Positions 1,766-62,066 of a DNA stretch of 64,000 nt are shown here, piece by piece. The notes under the pieces are model-generated. The model was not told the DNA's origin and made no database searches. It worked only from the letters and a program-made list of their open reading frames with translations. The position numbers and the translations under genes were made by a program. Positions within the stretch are counted from its first letter, which is position 1. Each line of letters starts with the position of its first letter. Source of the DNA: Mobula hypostoma (Eukaryota); NCBI RefSeq assembly GCF_963921235.1, contig NC_086097.1, forward strand, positions 114,764,001-114,828,000, written 5' to 3'.

Positions 1766-3745
1766 ATGGAGTGGAGTTTGTTAGATGCATTCAGAAAGGT
1801 TTCTTGACACAATGCAAGAGGACGGGCTGTACTTTATCTGGTATTGGGAAATGAACCTGGTCAGGTGTCAGGTCTCTCAGTAGGAGAGCATTTTGGAGAT
1901 AGTGATCACAATTCTATCTCCTTTACCATAACATTGGAGAGGGATAGGAAAGAACAAGTTAGGGAAACGTTTAATTGGAGTAAGGGGAAATATGAGGCTA
2001 TCAGGCAGGAACTTGGAAGCATAAATTGGAAACAGATGTTGACAGGGAAACGTGCAGAAGAAATGTGGCAAATTTTCAGGGGATGTTTGCATTGGGTTCT
2101 GCGTAGGTACATTCCGATGAATCAGGGAAAAGATGATAGGGTACAGGAACCATGGTGTACAAAAGCTGTTGTAAATCTAATCAAGAAGAAAAGAAGAGCT
2201 TATGAAAGGTTCAAAAAACTAGGTAATGATTGAGTTTTAGAAGATTATAAGGCTAGCAGGAAAAAGCTTAAGAATGAAATTAAGAGAGACAGAAGGGGCC
2301 ATGAGATGGCCTTGGTGGACAGGAGGAAAACCCCAAGGCATTCTACAACTATGTGAAGAGCAAAAGGATAAGACATGACAGAATAGAACTAATCAAGTGT
2401 GACAGTGGAAAAGTGTATATGGAACCGGAGGAGAGAGCAGAGGTACTTAATGAACTTTGCTTCGGTATTCACTACGGAAAAGGATCTTGGCGAATGTAGG
2501 GAAGACTTGCAGCAGACTGAAAAGCTTGAGCATGTAGATATTAATGAAGAGGATGTGCTGGAGGTTTTGGAAAGCATCAAGTTGGATAAGTCACCGGGAC
2601 CAAATGGGATGTACCCTAGGCTACTGTGGGAAGCGAGGGAGGCGATTGCTAAGCCTCTGGCAATGACCTTTGCATCATCAATGAGGACAGGGGAGGTTTC
2701 GGAGGATTGGAGGGTTGTGGATGTTGTTCCCTTGTTCCAGAAAGGGAGTAGAGATAGCCCAGGAAATTATAGACCAGTGAGTCTTACTTCAGTGAATGGT
2801 AATTTGATGGAGAAGATCCTGAGAGGCAGGATTTATGAACATTTGGAGAGGCATAATATGATTAGGAATAGTCAGCATGGCTTTGTCAAAGGCAGGTCGT
2901 GCCTTATGAGCCTGACTGAATTTTTTGAGGATGTGACTAAACACATTGATGAAGGTAGAGTCATAGATGTAGTGTATATGGATTTCAGCAAGGCATTTGA
3001 CCCCATGCAAGGCTTATTGAGAAAGCAGGCATAGGATCCAAGGGGACATTGCTTTATGGATCCAGATTTGGCTTGCCCACAGAAGGCAAAGAGTGGTTGG
3101 AGATGGGTCATATTCTGCATGGAGGTTGGTGATCAGTGGTGTGCCTCAGGGATCTGATCTGGGACCCCTGCTCTTTGTGATTTTTATAAATGACTTGGAT
3201 GAGGAAGTGCAGGGATGGGTTAGTAAATCTGCTGATAACACAAAGGTTGGAGGTGTTGTGGATAGTGTGAAGGGCTCTCAGAGGTTACAGCGGGACATTA
3301 ATAGGATGCAAGACTGGGCTGACAAGTGGCAGATGGATTTCAACCCAGATAAGTGTGATGTGGTTCATTTTGGTAGGTCAAATATGATGGCAGAATATAG
3401 TATTAATGGTAAGACTCTTGGCAGTGTGGAAGATCAGAGGAATCTTGGGGTCTGAGTCCATAGGACACTCAAAGCTGCTGCACAGGTTGACTCTGTGGTT
3501 AAGAAGGTATACGGTGCATTGGCCTTCATCAATCATGGGATCGAGTTTAAGAGCCGAGAGGTAACATTGCAGGTATATAAGACCCTGGTCAGACCCCACC
3601 TGGAGTACTGTGCTCAGTTCTGGTCACCTCACTAGAGGAAGGACATGGAAACCATAGAAAGGGTGCAGAGGAGATTTACAAGGATGTTCACATAAGAGTT
3701 GCTGGTGAACGCAGCAGGCCAGGCAACATCTCTAGGAAGAGGGGC

Positions 3746-3781
3746 AGTCGACGTTTCAGGCCGAGACCCTTCGTCAGGACT
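3746..3781 (-). ncRNA. Minimal hammerhead ribozyme in inverted Penelope arm
   Basis: Reverse complement AGTC-CTGACGA-AGG gtctcgg CCT-GAAA-CG-TC-GACT. Confidence 0.8.
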
Positions 3782-3931
3782 AACTGAAGGAAGAGTGAGT
3801 AAGGAATTGAAAGTTGGAGGGGGAGGGGGAGATCCAAAATGATAGGAGACGACAGGAGGGGGAGGGATGGAGCCAAGAGCTGGACAGGTGATAGGCAAAA
3901 GGGATACGAGAGGATCATGGAACAGGAGGTC

Positions 3932-4447
3932 TTTCCCTCCCCCCCTCTCTCTGCATTCCGCAGGGATCGCTCCCTACGCAACTCCCTTGTCCATTCGTCC
4001 CCCCCATCCCTCCCCACTGATCTCCCTCCTGGCACTTATCCGTGTAAGCGGAACAAGTGCTACACATGCCCTTACACTTCCTCCCTTACCACCATTCAGG
4101 GCCCCAAACAGTCCTTCCAGGTGAGGCAACACTTCACCTGTGAGTCGGCTGGGGTGATATACTGCGTCCGGTGCTCCCGATGTGGCCTTTTATATATTGG
4201 CGAGACCCGACGCAGACTGGGAGACCGCTTTGCTGAACATCTACGCTCTGTCCACCAGAGAAAGCAGGATCTCCCAGTGGCCACACATTTTAATTCCACA
4301 TCCCATTCCCATTCTGACATGTCTATCCACGGCCTCCTCTACTGTAAAGATGAAGCCACACTCAGGTTGGAGGAACAACACCTTATATTCCGTCTGGGTA
4401 GCCTCCAACCTGATGGCATGAACATCGACTTCTCTAACTTCCGTTAA
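3932..4447 (+). pseudogene. C-terminal Cys-rich linker + GIY-YIG endonuclease of Penelope ORF (partial, frame open)
   Basis: CKRNKCYTC..GVIYCVRCSRCGLLYIGETRRRLGDRFAEH..VATHFN..LEEQHLIFRLGSLQPDGMN. Confidence 0.9.
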
Positions 4448-4743
4448 TGTCCCACCTCCCCCTCGTACCCCATCTGTTACTTATTTTTATACACACATTC
4501 TTTCTCTCACTCTCCTTTTTCTCCCTCTGTCCCTCTGAATATGCCCCTTGCCCATCCTCTGGGTCCCCCCCCCACCCTGGTCTTTCTTCCCGGACCTCCT
4601 GTCGCATGATCCTCTCGTATCCCTTTTGCCTATCACCTGTCCAGCTCTCGGCTCTATCCCTCCCCCTCCTGTCTTCTCCTATCATTTTGGATCTCCCCCT
4701 CCCCCTCCAACTTTCAAATCCCTTACTCATTCTTCCTTTAGTT

Positions 4744-4779
4744 AGTCCTGATGAAGGGTCTCGGCCTGAAACGTCGACT
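4744..4779 (+). ncRNA. Minimal type I hammerhead ribozyme in Penelope pLTR
   Basis: AGTC-CTGATGA-AGG gtctcgg CCT-GAAA-CG-TC-GACT: core boxes intact, helix I AGTC/GACT, helix II AGG/CCT, palindromic ACGT helix III, GUC cleavage triplet. Confidence 0.82.
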
Positions 4780-5779
4780 GTACCTCTTCCTAGAGATGCT
4801 GCCTGGCCTGCTGCGTTCACCAGCAACTTTTATGTGTGTTGCTTGAATTTCCAGCATCTGCAGAATTCCTGTTGTTTACAAGGATGTTGCCTGGATTGGG
4901 TAGCATGCCTTATGAGCATAGGTTGAGTGAACTCGACCTTTTCTCCTTGGAGTGACGGAGGATGAGAGATGACCTCATAGAGGTGTGCATGATGATGAGA
5001 GGCACCGATCATGTGGATAGTCAGAGGCTTTTACCCCAGGACTGAAATGGGCATTACGAGAGGGCACAGTTTTAAGGTGGTTGGAAGTAGGTACAGAGGA
5101 GATGTCAGGGGTTAGGTTTTTACGTAGAGAGTGGTGATTGCGTGGAATGGGCTGCCGGCGGCAGTGGTGGAGGCAGAAACGATCGGGATTTTTAAGGGAC
5201 TGCTGGAGAGGTACATGGAGCTTAGAAAAATAGAGGGCTATGGGTAACCCTGGGTAATTTCTAAGGTAAGAACATGTTTGGCACAGCTTTGTGGGTGGAA
5301 GGGCCTGTATTGTGCTGTAGGTTTTTGATGTTTCTATGTTTCTATGTTAGAAAATCTGAGATAAATAAATTTTGCAGTGGTCAGATAGGGACGGATGATT
5401 TGGAATTGTGAAAATAAAGGCAAAAGTGGACTTGCATTTTGAGATCATTGTTGACCTAGACTGAAGGTTCTTATGTCAACTCTTATAAAACATTTTCTTA
5501 GATATTTATCTAACACTTTCAAGTGATTTCAGCTCCAAACTAATACGACTTGTGTTTGATGAGGAAAGGACTGGTACTTTCGAGAGGTCAATTGTTTCTA
5601 AAAATACATTTATCATTCCTTCCTCCTGCAGCAAACAGCTTAGATATTAACATTAATCATTCAAAATTTAAAAACAAAGTAATCACATAATGATCTATTG
5701 AATTTGCATGAATTCAACTCTGCATTTGTGATTAGATGTAAATAAAAAGGGAAAATGCCTGTTTAAGGCAACCCACTTA

Positions 5780-7855: not shown

Positions 7856-9470
7856 AGAAAAGCCAGTCAAGAGCTTAGGCAAGGTTTTTGACAGCTCTTT
7901 AAGGGACACAACATCCACTCAGGCGACCTGCATCGAGTTGGATGGCTGGCTGAAATCTGTGGACAAGTCTGGCCTACCTGGGAAGTTTAAAGCCTGGGTG
8001 TATCAGCATGGCATTCTTCCCAGAATCCTATGGCCCCTCCTCGTCTATGCAGTTCCGATCTCAACAGTCGAAACCTTAGAGAGGAGGGTTAGCAACCACC
8101 TCAGGAGATGGCTGGGACTGGCAAAGAGCCTGAGCAGCATCACACTCTATGGACACCACAACAAACTGCAACTGCCCTTCAAATCCTTGGAGGAGGAACT
8201 CAAGGTAACAAGAGCCAGAGAAGTGCTACAGTACAGGGACTTAAGGGATCCGAAGGTGGCTAGAGCAGGGATCCAAGTGAGGACTGGCAGGAAGTGGAGG
8301 GCAGAGGAAGCTGTTCAGGAAGTGGAGGCGAGGCTGCATCACAGGAGGCTGGTGGGAGTGGTCACACAAGGCCGAGCTGGGCTAGGATCCTTTCCAACTC
8401 CTCAAATGGACACCAGAGGGAAGGAAAGGCGTCGTCTAGTTCAGGAGGAGGTGAGGGCAGTAGTGGAGGAGATGAGAGCCTACAAGGCAGTGGGAATGAA
8501 GCAACAGGGAGCTTGGACAAGATGGGAGAAGGCGGTTGAGAGGAAAGTGATCTGGACTGATACTTGGAAAGCCGAACCACACCACATCTAATTTCTCATC
8601 CAGGCAGTGTATGATGTGCTTCCAAGCCCATCAAACCTGCACACATGGGGCAAGGCAGAGTCATCTGCGTACCCACTGTGCTCCAAGTGAGGAACCCTGG
8701 AGCACATCCTCAGCGGTTGTACAAGGGCACTTGGTGAGGGACGGTACAGGTGGAGGCATGATCAGGTCCTGAAGACCATCGCTGAAGCCGTCAGTGCAGG
8801 AGTTGAGTGGGCGAAGCGGTCCCGACCCTCCAAGCAGACCATTGCCTTTGTCAGAGCTGGGGAGCAGCCAATACCTGCCAAAAGAACATCTGCAGGCATT
8901 CTGACCTCTGCAAGGGACTGGCAGCTGTTGGTGGACCTCAAAGGGCAGCTGAAGTTCCCCAATCATATTGCAGCTACCACCCTGCAACCAGACATTTGTC
9001 CTAGTGTCTGAGTCGACTAAGCAAGAGGTGCTGCTGGAGCTGACAGCCCCATGGGAAGATAGCTTGGAAGAGGCCTTTGAAAGGAAGCTCTCCAAGTACG
9101 CAGGACTGATCAGCAACTGTCAGCAGGCTGGATGGAGAGTGAGGTGTCTCCCAGTGGAGGTTGGTTGTAGGGGATTCATAGCCCGTCCTTTAGTTAGAGC
9201 CTTCAGCATTTTGGGCATCGAGGGAGAGAGGAAGAGGAGAGCCATCCGCAGTACCACCGATGCAGCAGAGAGGGCCTCAGGATGGCTGTGGCTCAAAAGA
9301 GGGGAGCCATGGAGTCATAAGTAGCTAGCCATCTGGACACAAGCTGGGGTCTGATCAGCCCCGGCTGGGTCACCTAGAGGAGGCTGTATGATGTTGAAAG
9401 ACCCGAAACACCCGATGATTCCAGGAACATCACTGAAGATGTGTCCAGAAGCATCAGTAGATGTATGTAC
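7856..9470 (+). mobile_element. Hero-type (R2 group) non-LTR retrotransposon, 5'-truncated, with RT thumb, Zn knuckle and restriction-like endonuclease
   Basis: EKPVKSLGK..DKSGLPGKFKAWVYQHGILPRILWPL..RTGRKW; decayed CCHC knuckle (PLCSK.GTLEHILSGC), YRWRHDQVL, PD..LLELTAPWE..ERKLSKY..PVEVGCRGF; sits inside a LINE 3' UTR (7695-7855 and 9475-9570). Confidence 0.88.
9332..9464 (+). ncRNA. Structured 3' UTR RNA element of Hero retrotransposon (copy 1)
   Basis: Seven candidate helices, five with compensatory changes relative to 60215-60349. Confidence 0.7.
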
Positions 9471-9749
9471 TCAGCTGTTCTAGTCTGAATGCCCACAAGA
9501 AAGTGAATAATCTCAGGGTAGTACATGCTGGCACATTGATAATAAAACTACCTTCAACTTCGAAGTTTTAAATTTCAGAAGGTGCAGAGGTGCATTAAGA
9601 GTGGCTTTGCACTCTACCTGGATCGAAAAAAAATCTGTTTTAAATTAAGTTTTAAATATAAATGAATGTTAGAAATACTCAATATATCACTTAGTATCTG
9701 TGGAAAGAGAAATAGTCAATGTTTCAAGTCACCAATACAGTATATCTTT

Positions 9750-44770: not shown

Positions 44771-46415
44771 AGAAACATAGAAACATAGAAAATAGGTGCA
44801 GGAGTAGGCCATTCAGCCCTTCGAGCCTGCACCGCCATTTATTATGATCATGGCTGATCATCCAACTCAGAACCCCACCCCGGCCTTCCCTCCATACCCC
44901 CTGATCCCCATAGCCACAAGGGCCATATCTAACTCCCTCTTAAATATAGCCAATGAACTGGCCTCAACTGTTTCCTGTGGCAGAGAATTCCACAGATTCA
45001 CCACTCTCTGTGTGAAGAAGTTTTTCCTAATCTCGGTCCCAAAAGGCTTCCCCTTTATCCTCAAACTGTGACCCCTTGTTCTGGACTTCCCCAACATCGG
45101 GAACAATCTTCCTGCATCTAGCCTGTCCAATCCCTTTAGGATTTTATACGTTTCGATCAGATCGCCCCTCAATCTTCTAAATTCCAACGAGTACAAGCCC
45201 AGTTCATCCAGTCTTTCTTCATATGAAAATCCTGCCATCCCAGGTATCAATCTGGTGAACCTTCTTTGTACTCCCTCTATGGCAAGGATGTCTTTCCTCA
45301 GATTAGGGGACCAAGACTGCACACAATACTCCAGGTGTGGTCTCACCAAGGCCTTGTACAACTGCAGTAGTACCTCCCTGCTCCTGTACTCGAATCCTCT
45401 CGCTATAAATGCCAGCATACCATTCGTCTTTTTCACTGCCTGCTGTACCTGCATGCCCACTTTCAATGACTGGTGTATAATGACACCCAGGTCTCATTGC
45501 ACCTCCCCTTATCCTAATCGGCCACCATTCAGATAATAATCTGTTTTCCTATTTTTGCCACCAAAGTGGATAACTTCACATTAATCCACATTAAATTGCA
45601 TCTGCCATGAATTTGCCCACTCACCCAACCTATCCAAGTCACCCTGCATCCTCTTAGCATCCTCCTCACAGCTAACACTGCCACCCAGCTTCGTGTCATC
45701 CGCAAACTTGGAGATGCTGCATTTAATTCCCTCATCCAAGTCATTAATATATATTGTAAACAACTGGGGTCCCAGCACTGAGCCTTGCGGTACCCCACGA
45801 GTCACCGCCTGCCATTCTGAAAAGGTCCCGTTTATTCCCTCTCCTTGCTTCCTGTCTGCTAACCAATTCTCTATCCACATCAATACCTTACCCCCAATAC
45901 TGTGTGCTTTAAGTTTGCACACTAATCTCCTGTGTGGGACCTTGTCAAAAGCCTTTTGAAAATTCAAATATACCACATCCACTGGTTCTCCCCTATCCAC
46001 TCTACTAGTTACATCCTCAAAAAATTCAATGAGATTCGTCAGACATGATTTTCCTTTCACAAATCCATGCTGACTTTGTCCGATGATTTCACCGCTTTCC
46101 AAATGTGCTGTTATCACATCTTTGATAACTGACTCCAGCAGTTTCCCCACCACCGACGTTAGGCTAACCGGTCTATAATTCCCCGGTTTCTCTCTCCCTC
46201 CTTTTTTAAAAAGTGGGGTTACATTAGCCACCCTCCAATCCTCAGGAACTAGTCCAGAATCTAACGAGTTTTGAAAAATCATCACTAATGCATCCACTAT
46301 TTCTTGGGCTACTTCCTTAAGCACTCTAGGATGCAGACCATCTGGCCCTGGGGATCTATCTGCCTTCAATCCCTTCAATTTACCTAACACCACTTCCCTT
46401 ACTTAACATGTATTT
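44771..46415 (-). mobile_element. Young CR1 LINE, 5'-truncated, RT nearly intact
   Basis: ORFs 45581-46393 (PGPDGLHP, GNYRPVSLTS, GVPQGSVLGP, FADDTK) and 44867-45466; tail AGAAACATAGAAACATAGAA. Confidence 0.96.
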
Positions 46416-59518: not shown

Positions 59519-59924
59519 GTACTGTATATATACCTGTGATTAAATTGGAGGATTGCTGGGCAGCATGGCTTGAAGGGCTGGAATGGCCTATTCTGTGCTA
59601 TAGTTTAATAAATAAATAAATAAAATTAAAAAGTATCAAACTAAGGAACAGTAACCTACTTAATGCCTAATACAATAGTCTAGTTTTCAGTCTCATTTGA
59701 GTGTATTTCTCAATCTGGTTGATCTAGCAGCTTGGTGTTCACACAAGAGTGGAGGATGTTGGGATTGAAGGAGGGATGTAAACATTAAAATTTTATGTTT
59801 AAAACTTGAAAAACTTTAACTAAATTTGGTCTGAGGTGAATCTTTGTTACAACATATATCTTTGTCCATGGACATGTTAATTTTTAATATGAATATAGCA
59901 CAGCGATTCAAGACAACAAAAATC

Positions 59925-60355
59925 AGCACGTTCCCAAGCCGTCCATCACCTTTATAAGAGCAGGAGAGAAGACTCAACATCGGCCTAGCTCCTCGGTAGG
60001 GCTTCTTGCCACTGCATGAGACTGGCAGCTCCAAGTCAACCTAGGGAGGCAGCTCAAGTTCCCAGAGAACGTCGCAGCCACTCCGCTCCACCCGGACGTG
60101 GTGTTAATACCGGAGTCTACAAAGCAAGTGGTCCTCCTGGAACTTACTGTCTCCTGGGAAGACCGGATTGAAGAGACTGTAGATCCGGAGGGGGGATCCG
60201 TGGATTAGTGTGTCACTTGGATACAAGTCGGGGGCTGATCACCCCCGACTGGGTCGACCGGGCGAGAGTGTCTGATGATTAAAAACCCAAAACACCCTAT
60301 AACCCCGGGCTCATCACTGAAGATGTGTCCAAGTAGCACCAGAAGGTGTATTCTA
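59925..60355 (+). mobile_element. Second, diverged Hero-type fragment (RLE domain, internal deletion, 3' UTR)
   Basis: Translates PKPSITFIRAGEK..DWQLQVNLGRQLKFPENVAATPLHPDVVLIPESTKQVVLLELTVSWEDRIEE, homologous to ~8830-9075. Confidence 0.85.
60215..60349 (+). ncRNA. Structured 3' UTR RNA element of Hero retrotransposon (copy 2)
   Basis: Same helix set as 9332-9464 with compensatory substitutions. Confidence 0.7.
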
Positions 60356-62066
60356 CAACTAGTACAATTTCATGTTTAGAAAATATTTGAATTTTTATTA
60401 GAATATGCATTAATTGCATTGTGTCACTTGGTACTGAAAGTTTACCATAAAATAATTCATTGTAAATATACAGGCAAGCAGTTTTCTCCAGGGATGGAAA
60501 GTCTCTGGAATATCCTGTCTTAGATGTTGTAGCAACATATAAACAGGGTGCATTTACTTACATCCTTAAATTCCTGAAGTGACGTTAGCAAATATTATAC
60601 TTAGCATTTACAGCAAGTTACAGAATCAGCAATGTTGGTTCTGCTTGAGAAATGCTTGTATATCTGCTTTTGAAATAGCTGTTATGTTAGAAGCATCTGC
60701 TAAGAGATGCCAAGAATATGCCAGACATTGAAGGTGGGAGATGTCGAGCCTCTTTCTTGGCAGCTGTGTATAGTCCATGTTTCACAGTAATGCATCAGTA
60801 TGCCAAGAGTGCAAATGCTATTGATCAGCATCTTAGACCTAGATGTCATTTTGTTATTCTTCTCTGCTGTTCTGTTAATCAGCCAAATTGAGTGACTGTG
60901 TTTTCAAAGTACCTATGGAGCTTGTGGCACAGTGGAGTGTTGTATGTCAAAATGAAAAGGTATCAAGATTTGTTGCCTGTTTCCAGTCCAGGTCTATTGA
61001 GTCTGATCTGTGGTGAAGACATAATGTTTTGTCTCTTTCTGACATTTTTCTTTGCACAGTGACACATTCAGTAGGACTCCTGCCTCATGATGTCAGAGAC
61101 CCAGGATTCAATCAAGTGCTGCTTACGTGGAGCTTGAATATGCTTCCGGGGAACAACTGGGTTTTCTCAGGGTGCCTCTGTTTCTTCTCACATCCCAAGG
61201 ATATGTGATTTAGTGGATTAAATCACCCCTGTCAATTGCCTCTAAAGTGTAGGTATGTAGTGGAATCTGGGTGAAGATGATAAAAATGTTGGGAAAATTA
61301 AAAATATATGATTCTCTGGGATTCGTGTGAATGTGTGGTTGGCATGGAGTTGATGGGCTGAAGGGCCTGTATCATTCTATGACTCCATTATTTGTACAGA
61401 TAACACTAAATTTGGTGGTCTAGTGGACAGTGAAGACAATGGTCTAATGTTACACCAACTGGGAAAGTGGGCAAAGGAATGGCAGATGGAATTTAACTCA
61501 GACAACTGCAAAGTAGGCCAAATAGCAGCAAATGGCATTAGCTCAGGTAGAAACAGGACAGACTGCATTACACACACAGAATGCTGGAGGAACTCAGCAG
61601 GTCAGGCAGCATCAATGGAAATGAATAAACAGTTGACATTCTGGGCCACGATACCTCATCAAGATCCGGTCACCGTCAGAATCTGGTACCCAGGGTCCCG
61701 ATAAAAGTTCTTAGCCTAAAACATCAACTGTTCAATTCCCTCCAGAGAAACCGTCTGATCTGCAGAATTCCTCCTGCATATAGCGTGTGTTGCTCCGGGT
61801 AGGTACTTTGGTTATGATGAATTTTGGGGGAGATTGTTGTTTTCATTGTGTTTTTCCCTTGTAGCTGTAATACTTTATGCTTGTTAATATGTTTCTTTCC
61901 TGTAAAATTTTAATAAGTTGTAGTATATTTGGTTCTGTACTTCTTTAGTTCTTATTTTGTTTGCAAAGATGAAGCTCAACTCAGTACCTGTCAACAGGTT
62001 TCCTATCAGACTGGTTTGCGGTATACTGTATATAAAAAAGCCTGTGCTCAATTCCCTTTGTTACTT

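Follow-up and report, generated by a model that had tools for sequence, protein, structure and literature searches.

What does the folded RNA at the 3' end of Hero retrotransposons do? The question is raised by two diverged Hero copies that lie in one window, the 64,000-nt stretch of the Mobula hypostoma genome analyzed here (NC_086097.1, positions 114,764,001 to 114,828,000), and that keep the same pairings near their 3' ends. A first-pass annotation had described these pairings as a fold with two candidate pseudoknots and offered two readings of it, a template-recognition element or a ribozyme-like structure. The second reading can now be made specific: the fold is very probably a hammerhead with a complete core in a split, non-circular S-G-C order, in which the block carrying CUGANGA is the one that is split.

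The elements that carry the fold

Copy 1 (7856-9475, plus strand) is a 5'-truncated Hero-like RLE non-LTR retrotransposon of subfamily A, with 95.3% identity by blastn to the unit of locus L061. It corresponds to unit positions 2022-3639 of the 3639-nt element, i.e., to its 3' 1.6 kb, and its translated frame, broken by stops and a frameshift, ends at a stop codon at 9318-9320. Copy 2 (59897-60359, plus strand) is a short, internally deleted 3' fragment of subfamily B; the two subfamilies share ~65% DNA identity in the ORF. One 25-nt piece of the subfamily-A fold, the 25 nt following the predicted cut site, has 1642 exact copies in the genome.

Translations of sister copies and Pfam searches revealed a single ORF with an N-terminal zinc finger, RVT_1, and zf-RVT. 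The protein alignment adds a CCHC knuckle and invariant C, C, H, C, P-D, and E columns, and we take the motif of the C-terminal region to be a nuclease of the PD-(D/E)xK (restriction-like) type. A search of solved structures gave no PDB match for the C-terminal profile, and Pfam found no GIY-YIG domain in this region; hence, this is not a Penelope-like element, despite its tandems resembling those of such elements. The best solved relatives of the reverse transcriptase (RT) are R2 (7.7e-16), ahead of L1 (2.4e-09). Together with zf-RVT, this bears out the R2-group setting proposed earlier, and the protein sequence supports placing the element among the R2-superfamily (RLE) non-LTR retrotransposons. 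Homologs were found in fishes, a skate, a lancelet, and a scallop, in agreement with the host range given for HERO in PMC9004415. The name Hero, taken over from the first-pass annotation, fits the anatomy of the element, whose placement in the Hero clade proper is provisional. No target-site duplication of at least 8 bp was found in 26 of the 29 subfamily-A copies with a located 3' end, two of these ends being probably misplaced.

The window holds other retroelement sequences. A Penelope-like element occupies 2393-4800, with RVT_1 at 2393-3031 and GIY-YIG at 3803-4444, and contains minimal hammerhead-like motifs at ~4748 (plus strand) and ~3777 (minus strand), a known arrangement that Rfam misses at its gathering score. 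An RVT_1 fragment on the minus strand (45584-46402, E 1.8e-30) likely belongs to an unrelated LINE.

A hammerhead core in a split wiring

The fold spans ~120 nt. In copy 1 (all parts on the plus strand) it opens with the 5' strand of P1 (9332-9341), which pairs with 9440-9449, and continues, with no unpaired base at either join, through hairpin P2 (9342-9366; helix strands 9342-9349/9359-9366) into the 5' strand of stem II (9367-9371, G10.1 at 9367), which pairs with 9400-9404. The segment 9373-9381 then carries the 5' strand of P3 (9373-9377, paired with 9421-9425) and a GA of a k-turn. It is followed by block S (9382-9395), composed of the 3' strand of stem III (9382-9387), N17 (9388), and the 5' strand of stem I (9389-9395). 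A 4-nt linker leads from stem I to stem II and, with block G, fills 9396-9413; here the 3' strand of stem II (9400-9404) precedes the core and stem III part (9405-9413), i.e., GAAA at 9405-9408 and the 5' strand of stem III at 9408-9413. The 3-nt bulge and second GA of the k-turn (9414-9418) and the 3' strand of P3 (9421-9425) come next. Block C (9426-9449) contains the 3' strand of stem I (9426-9432) and CUGANGA (9433-9439), after which stands the 3' strand of P1 instead of stem II. The last segment (9451-9475) comprises a terminal hairpin (9451-9464), which may be a candidate part for recognition by the protein, and the 3' end of the element. N17 is an A in copy 1 (triplet GUA), so the inferred cut falls between 9388 and 9389, 87 nt upstream of the 3' end.

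The same fold occupies 60215-60349 (plus strand) in copy 2, where it scores 83.9 bits with covariance model R1, whose training set does not include this copy. There, N17 is a C at 60272 (triplet GUC), G12 has decayed to A at 60289, and stem II has a mismatch at 60284. Copy 2 is likely inactive because of the decayed core G12, a base kept in 22 of 30 subfamily-B copies. The helices listed in the first-pass annotation are all present in both copies, which fold better than their shuffles (z = -2.6 and -3.9). When pseudoknots are disallowed, structure prediction for these copies fails to recover the hammerhead fold, in which the former P4 is stem III, the downstream pseudoknot is stem I, and the upstream pseudoknot is stem II. 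Two other details of that annotation are modified by wider comparison. The 16-nt stretch called invariant is so between the two window copies, but CUGANGA is the one part of it conserved across families, and the base right after this motif is variable in subfamily B. The G proposed as ancestral in P4 sits at a polymorphic position, with T in 19, C in 8, and G in 3 of 30 subfamily-A copies and T in 14 and G in 11 copies of subfamily B.

Several features identify the fold as a hammerhead: the core elements CUGANGA, GAAA, and UH are present, N7 is free, N17 is not G, and stems I, II, and III abut the core and covary. Self-cleavage after N17 is the likely activity predicted from this arrangement. 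The S-G-C block order and the short linker between stems I and II, of 0-7 nt, are those of type-SGC hammerheads. Other expected traits are absent. A9 and G10.1 are neither adjacent nor separated by just 1-2 inserted bases, since the 3' strand of P1 comes at once after A9; block C is interrupted; and there is no helix tying stems I and II together. The CUGANGA strand is thus separated from stem II by P1 and hairpin P2, the 5' strand of stem II lies upstream of block S, directly after P2, and an additional helix, P3, prolongs stem III through the k-turn. This placement of stem II was checked by pairing strands with their own or with swapped partners: the upstream strand forms 4.58 bp with its own stem II partner and 2.21 bp with swapped ones. 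A contiguous stem II, using the strand after CUGANGA with or without one extra base, was rejected (1.12 bp versus 1.06 swapped). Readings as an HDV-like ribozyme, a twister, or a C/D snoRNA were dropped by eye and for want of an Rfam match, the C/D-like letters being accounted for by the k-turn and the core. Rfam release 15 gave 0 matches at gathering score in the window and, among 16 diverged loci, one chance match (E 4.2).

How far is such a wiring known? Type-SGC (and CSG) non-circularly permuted hammerheads, with the S-G-C order and demonstrated cleavage, were described by Eckert et al. 2023 (PMC10085705), and the fold resembles them in its S-G-C blocks, its two core pseudoknots, the short linker from the 5' strand of stem I to the 3' strand of stem II, and the same core nucleotides. 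It differs from them in what follows A9, since type-SGC block C is contiguous, and was assumed by these authors to be impossible to interrupt, whereas in Hero A9 is followed by P1 and the 5' strand of stem II stands upstream after P2. It also has, instead of a helix between stems I and II, a P3 that extends stem III with a k-turn. Furthermore, the ribozymes of Eckert et al. came from metatranscriptomes and, in the available text of PMC10085705, none is placed in the genome of a known organism except one GCS candidate; the Hero fold, unlike these environmental RNAs, occurs in thousands of retrotransposon copies of animals. In the openly accessible papers that our search covered, neither a hammerhead in Hero nor a block C split in this way is described. 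The earlier statement that this is not a described motif hence holds for the exact wiring, given the literature and the lack of Rfam matches, and fails for the hammerhead core and the S-G-C order, which were known (PMC10085705). We regard the fold as a new variant, in which the split wiring and the retrotransposon setting are new.

Constraints on the fold in diverged relatives

A scan with a 51-protein alignment provided 80 Hero-like loci from metagenomes, at 39-87% identity. A strict descriptor finds the fold in 45 of the 80, and in 37 of the 58 with at least 260 nt after the protein match; many of the 21 loci that fail it despite having enough sequence are decayed copies that the covariance model recovers. 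Controls gave no match on the reverse strand, none in the ORF region of the 80 loci, and 1 in 3650 shuffles. The counts for the core and its modules given below refer to the 40 non-redundant descriptor matches. The invariance of the core among these 40 loci is not in itself evidence, because the descriptor demanded the core letters; the evidence lies in how often the descriptor matches and in the positions that it left free.

The covariance model R1, built from 29 rows, finds only copies 1 and 2 in the window and recovers 59 of the 80 loci at E <= 2e-4, 27 of them being training rows. Across diverged relatives, both partners have changed in 36 of the 39 pairs that make up the fold, and all helices covary, those of the two pseudoknots included. 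Alignment A3 takes 27 metagenome rows from the 40 loci, a selection guided mostly by how canonical their P1-P2 layout is, which favors the counts for P1 and P2; row L046 of this alignment is mis-bounded at its 5' end, with gaps in P1. The covariation score is 0.69, against 0.21 in shuffled and 0.08-0.13 in slid alignments. Stems I and III have 95% of their cells paired in a plain MAFFT alignment, with 10 of 11 pairs double-changed, and stem II has 97% paired, with 4 of 5 pairs double-changed. Protein-coding constraint cannot account for the conservation of blocks G and C: 39 of the 40 diverged loci have their stop codon upstream of the cut site. Scans of viral contigs with the protein gave no relative outside Hero. 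From 106 viral loci chosen because they contain blocks G and C, 80 were scored with model R1; the highest score was 21.2 bits, at a locus lacking the helices. In loci L115 and L133, a U replaces C3 of the core.

Could the hammerhead letters be kept for shape only? The fold may be a catalytically silent scaffold that the Hero protein, perhaps with a host protein binding the k-turn, recognizes for priming. Its location at the 3' end fits this idea, since R2-type proteins bind there. The free positions, however, follow the rules of a ribozyme. N17, on which the descriptor placed no demand, is U in 17, C in 12, A in 11, and G in none of the 40 loci; at least 18 changes among A, C, and U are needed on the protein tree, and the avoidance of G is the rule for a hammerhead cleavage site. 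This is also what a template-recognition element alone, the other option of the first-pass annotation, leaves unexplained. N7 is free while its neighbors are fixed, and the pair 15.2-16.2 is C-G in 37 loci and U-A in 3, a swap that stays paired. A silent scaffold is less likely because of the N17 rule, and we regard it as improbable.

The fold carries two further modules. A k-turn pattern between stem III and P3 occurs in 29 of the 40 loci (null mean 1.0, maximum 5 in 1000). The consensus of k-turns is a 3-nt bulge followed by tandem G-A/A-G pairs between two helices, and such a pattern in the sequence suggests that a protein may bind there. The other module is the apex of P2, where 28 of the 40 loci have a six-base palindrome, in 7 different hexamers (one row, L149, being mis-bounded), a statistic that is somewhat generous because the outer palindrome pair can belong to the stem in some rows. 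Shuffled apexes gave a mean of 5.0 and a maximum of 12, and a control 11-mer stretch gave 2 of 40. At least 7 changes of hexamer are needed on the tree, and the palindromic character persists through them. Such a self-complementary loop, kept across sequence change, is what distinguishes a kissing-loop hairpin, and in copy 1 the palindrome at 9351-9358 is the corresponding candidate. Many P2 loops have two bases before the palindrome and one after it. This is the 2+6+1 layout of the HIV-1 dimer loop. Kissing loops act in retroviral dimerization, where the six-base palindrome of the initiation loop likewise changes in sequence and stays self-complementary (PMC3362945). The Hero hairpin differs from it in being built into the ribozyme junction of a non-LTR element, and its dimerization is only predicted. 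Whether the P2 loop does act in kissing is, in our assessment, evenly balanced.

Head-to-tail copies and the nature of the template

If the fold is a ribozyme, what does it do for the element? Genomic copies provide indications. Among 29 subfamily-A copies chosen by their ORF start, 18 are seamlessly preceded by a piece of their own tail, and in 9 of these the head piece extends back through the whole fold. In such tandem copies the 3' end of the element passes straight into its own 5' UTR, and the 18 junctions differ by point changes alone, without any change in length. The genome contains 82 exact tail-to-5' UTR junctions, and subfamily B has such junctions too (3 exact ones). Among diverged loci, 9 of 32 run from the tail into the conserved 5' UTR motif, a count from short-read assemblies that may collapse repeats. 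The 5' UTR (L061, oriented positions 3633-3750, and diverged loci) opens with a repeated motif conserved across families, a candidate promoter or protein-binding site.

The copies also show what happens at the cut site. A pool of 44 head pieces, the longest extending 995 nt from the junction, includes 27 that continue beyond the cut site and a single one that stops no more than 5 nt from it. Among the 1642 copies of the 25 nt after the cut, a single one differs at all three upstream bases, owing to a single-base deletion; the same test at a control offset gave 9 matches, 7 of which are one recurrent internal deletion. Since copies are continuous across the site, the templates were not nicked there when copied. 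The absence of a pile-up of copies at the cut led us to reject a role of the ribozyme in making the 5' end of linear templates. Indel scars were not found at the cut site in subfamily A, with 4 deletions and no insertions, against none and 3 at the control site. The lack of a pile-up or scar, like the k-turn, would also suit a silent scaffold.

Continuity across the site would equally be expected of a brake or quality switch, in which the ribozyme nicks Hero RNA without bound protein, limiting expression, whereas bound RNA stays uncut and is copied. Subfamily B offers a variation on this theme: its frame continues through the 5' half of the fold (P1, P2, and stem II; window 60200-60278, copies L031-L060), and its stop codon begins right after the predicted cut site, the frame being open up to there in 25 of 29 copies, so that a cut would also remove the stop codon. 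However, this arrangement occurs in 0 of the 40 diverged loci, and a brake leaves the head-to-tail pieces, the shared alleles described below, and the palindrome without explanation. We consider it the least probable of the readings discussed here.

We instead favor, on balance, a reading in which the ribozyme cleaves after N17 and religates, giving a circular Hero RNA that is copied for more than one turn; the narrower proposition that Hero RNA has a circular template we hold to be rather probable. Cutting and rejoining is the simplest account because a conserved cutting motif lies in a region that copies cross unbroken and because the heads overlap with the element itself; circularized RNA would explain why many genomic copies run past their own start. 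A genomic copy whose head piece holds the whole fold would give a transcript with two ribozymes. Should both cut, a unit-length RNA would be released, and the half-folds at its ends could re-pair (~27 bp over P1, II, P3, and III) and then join. The protein would start reverse transcription at an internal point of the circle, ~87 nt beyond the cut, and presumably run round, leaving a 5'-truncated copy or a full unit with a new head. The P2 palindromes could kiss between the head and tail folds of one transcript, aiding the swap of halves, or between two RNAs, with template switches producing head/tail mosaics.

Comparison of heads and tails bears on these possibilities. Locus L204 is a ~985-nt deleted unit copied 1.4 times, with the same private breakpoint in head and body. 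In 33 head/tail pairs (4 of 20 fetched tails without a locatable 3' end were dropped), head and tail of one insertion have in common 37 of 62 minor alleles, against 23.9 when permuted, and 15 rare alleles, against 2.1. Yet discordance between head and tail in full-length copies amounts to 17 of 158 polymorphic non-CpG sites (10.8%), a value to be set against a background of 3.2% and 23.9% for unrelated tails, and short derivatives are discordant at 8 of 16 sites, no better than unrelated tails. Roughly a third of the heads behave as if derived from another RNA, or else these sites mutate fast. A monomeric circle predicts only the background difference; hence, a single-molecule circle is not the whole story. 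The site 19 nt before the junction (terminal hairpin loop, window position 9457) is A in 27 of 33 heads and in most full-length tails and mostly G in 30 copies (L001-L030), a pattern for which subfamily history or A-to-I editing may be responsible. Twelve derivatives of ~1 kb are internally deleted (L068, L069, L073, L080, L082, L083, L084, L090, L093, L204, L212, and L214). All retain ~590-650 nt from the 5' end and 290-360 nt from the 3' end, with a breakpoint that differs in each, pointing to a recurrent jump or a deletion hot spot.

The main rival to the circle is an active ribozyme with linear templates and jumps within dimers. Cleavage would trim transcripts or join RNAs end to end, and heads would arise from RT jumping to a P2-kissed partner RNA, or be inherited from tandem source loci. 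R2 enzymes do jump between templates, and the head/tail discordance above background is what jumping would produce, as is the discordance at site -19 between head and tail in 6 of 8 short derivatives. Loci L121 and L118, 70% alike and joined head to tail on one metagenome contig with a spacing of 3730 nt, could also be counted here if they represent the joining of different families; they may instead be an assembly chimera. Against linear templates stand the single length of the junction in 18 copies, with point changes only, the repeated breakpoint of L204, and the rare alleles common within insertions. Moreover, a ribozyme in the head that set the 5' end would make heads start at the cut, and they do not. 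We regard linear templates as unlikely.

Other mobile elements offer parallels for a circular template. A model of replication through circles, with head-to-tail copies, has been put forward for Penelope elements, and Penelope-like elements and retrozymes resemble Hero in having a hammerhead in a terminal repeat, head-to-tail partial tandems, and a proposed circular template (PMC4209133). Palindrome-aided dimers may be another common trait (bioRxiv 10.64898/2026.07.22.740005). In these elements the hammerheads belong to type I or type III, loop 3 holds the palindrome, and the endonuclease is of the GIY-YIG kind or there is no protein at all. Hero combines an R2-like RT and a restriction-like endonuclease, and its palindrome sits in a hairpin of its own. 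With R2 and its relatives, Hero shares an R2-superfamily protein and, if our prediction is correct, the processing of the template by a self-cleaving RNA; the R2 ribozyme, however, is HDV-like and, from its place at the 5' end, determines where a linear RNA begins (PMC13580325 and PMC7650587). The Hero hammerhead is found 87 nt in from the 3' end, and its cut is not where copies begin.

Taken together, Hero elements could be LINEs whose replication proceeds through RNA circles made by a ribozyme. This ribozyme, a hammerhead of a seventh wiring in which A9 and G10.1 are disconnected, would carry a kissing loop and a k-turn and would pair two copies, cut, swap halves, and ligate, and the R2-type protein would prime inside the circle and recombine between kissed RNAs as retroviruses do. 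We put forward this complete scheme only tentatively. If true, hammerheads would gain a wiring that an assumption behind the six-permutation scheme had excluded, and a non-circularly permuted ribozyme would be found in animal genomes in thousands of copies and not only in environmental RNA. By the textbook view, LINEs of the R2 superfamily use linear templates, with priming at the 3' end. A circular, dimer-capable template would, if confirmed, be available to such a LINE, and internal priming on circular RNA would be relevant to gene-insertion tools of the R2 type.
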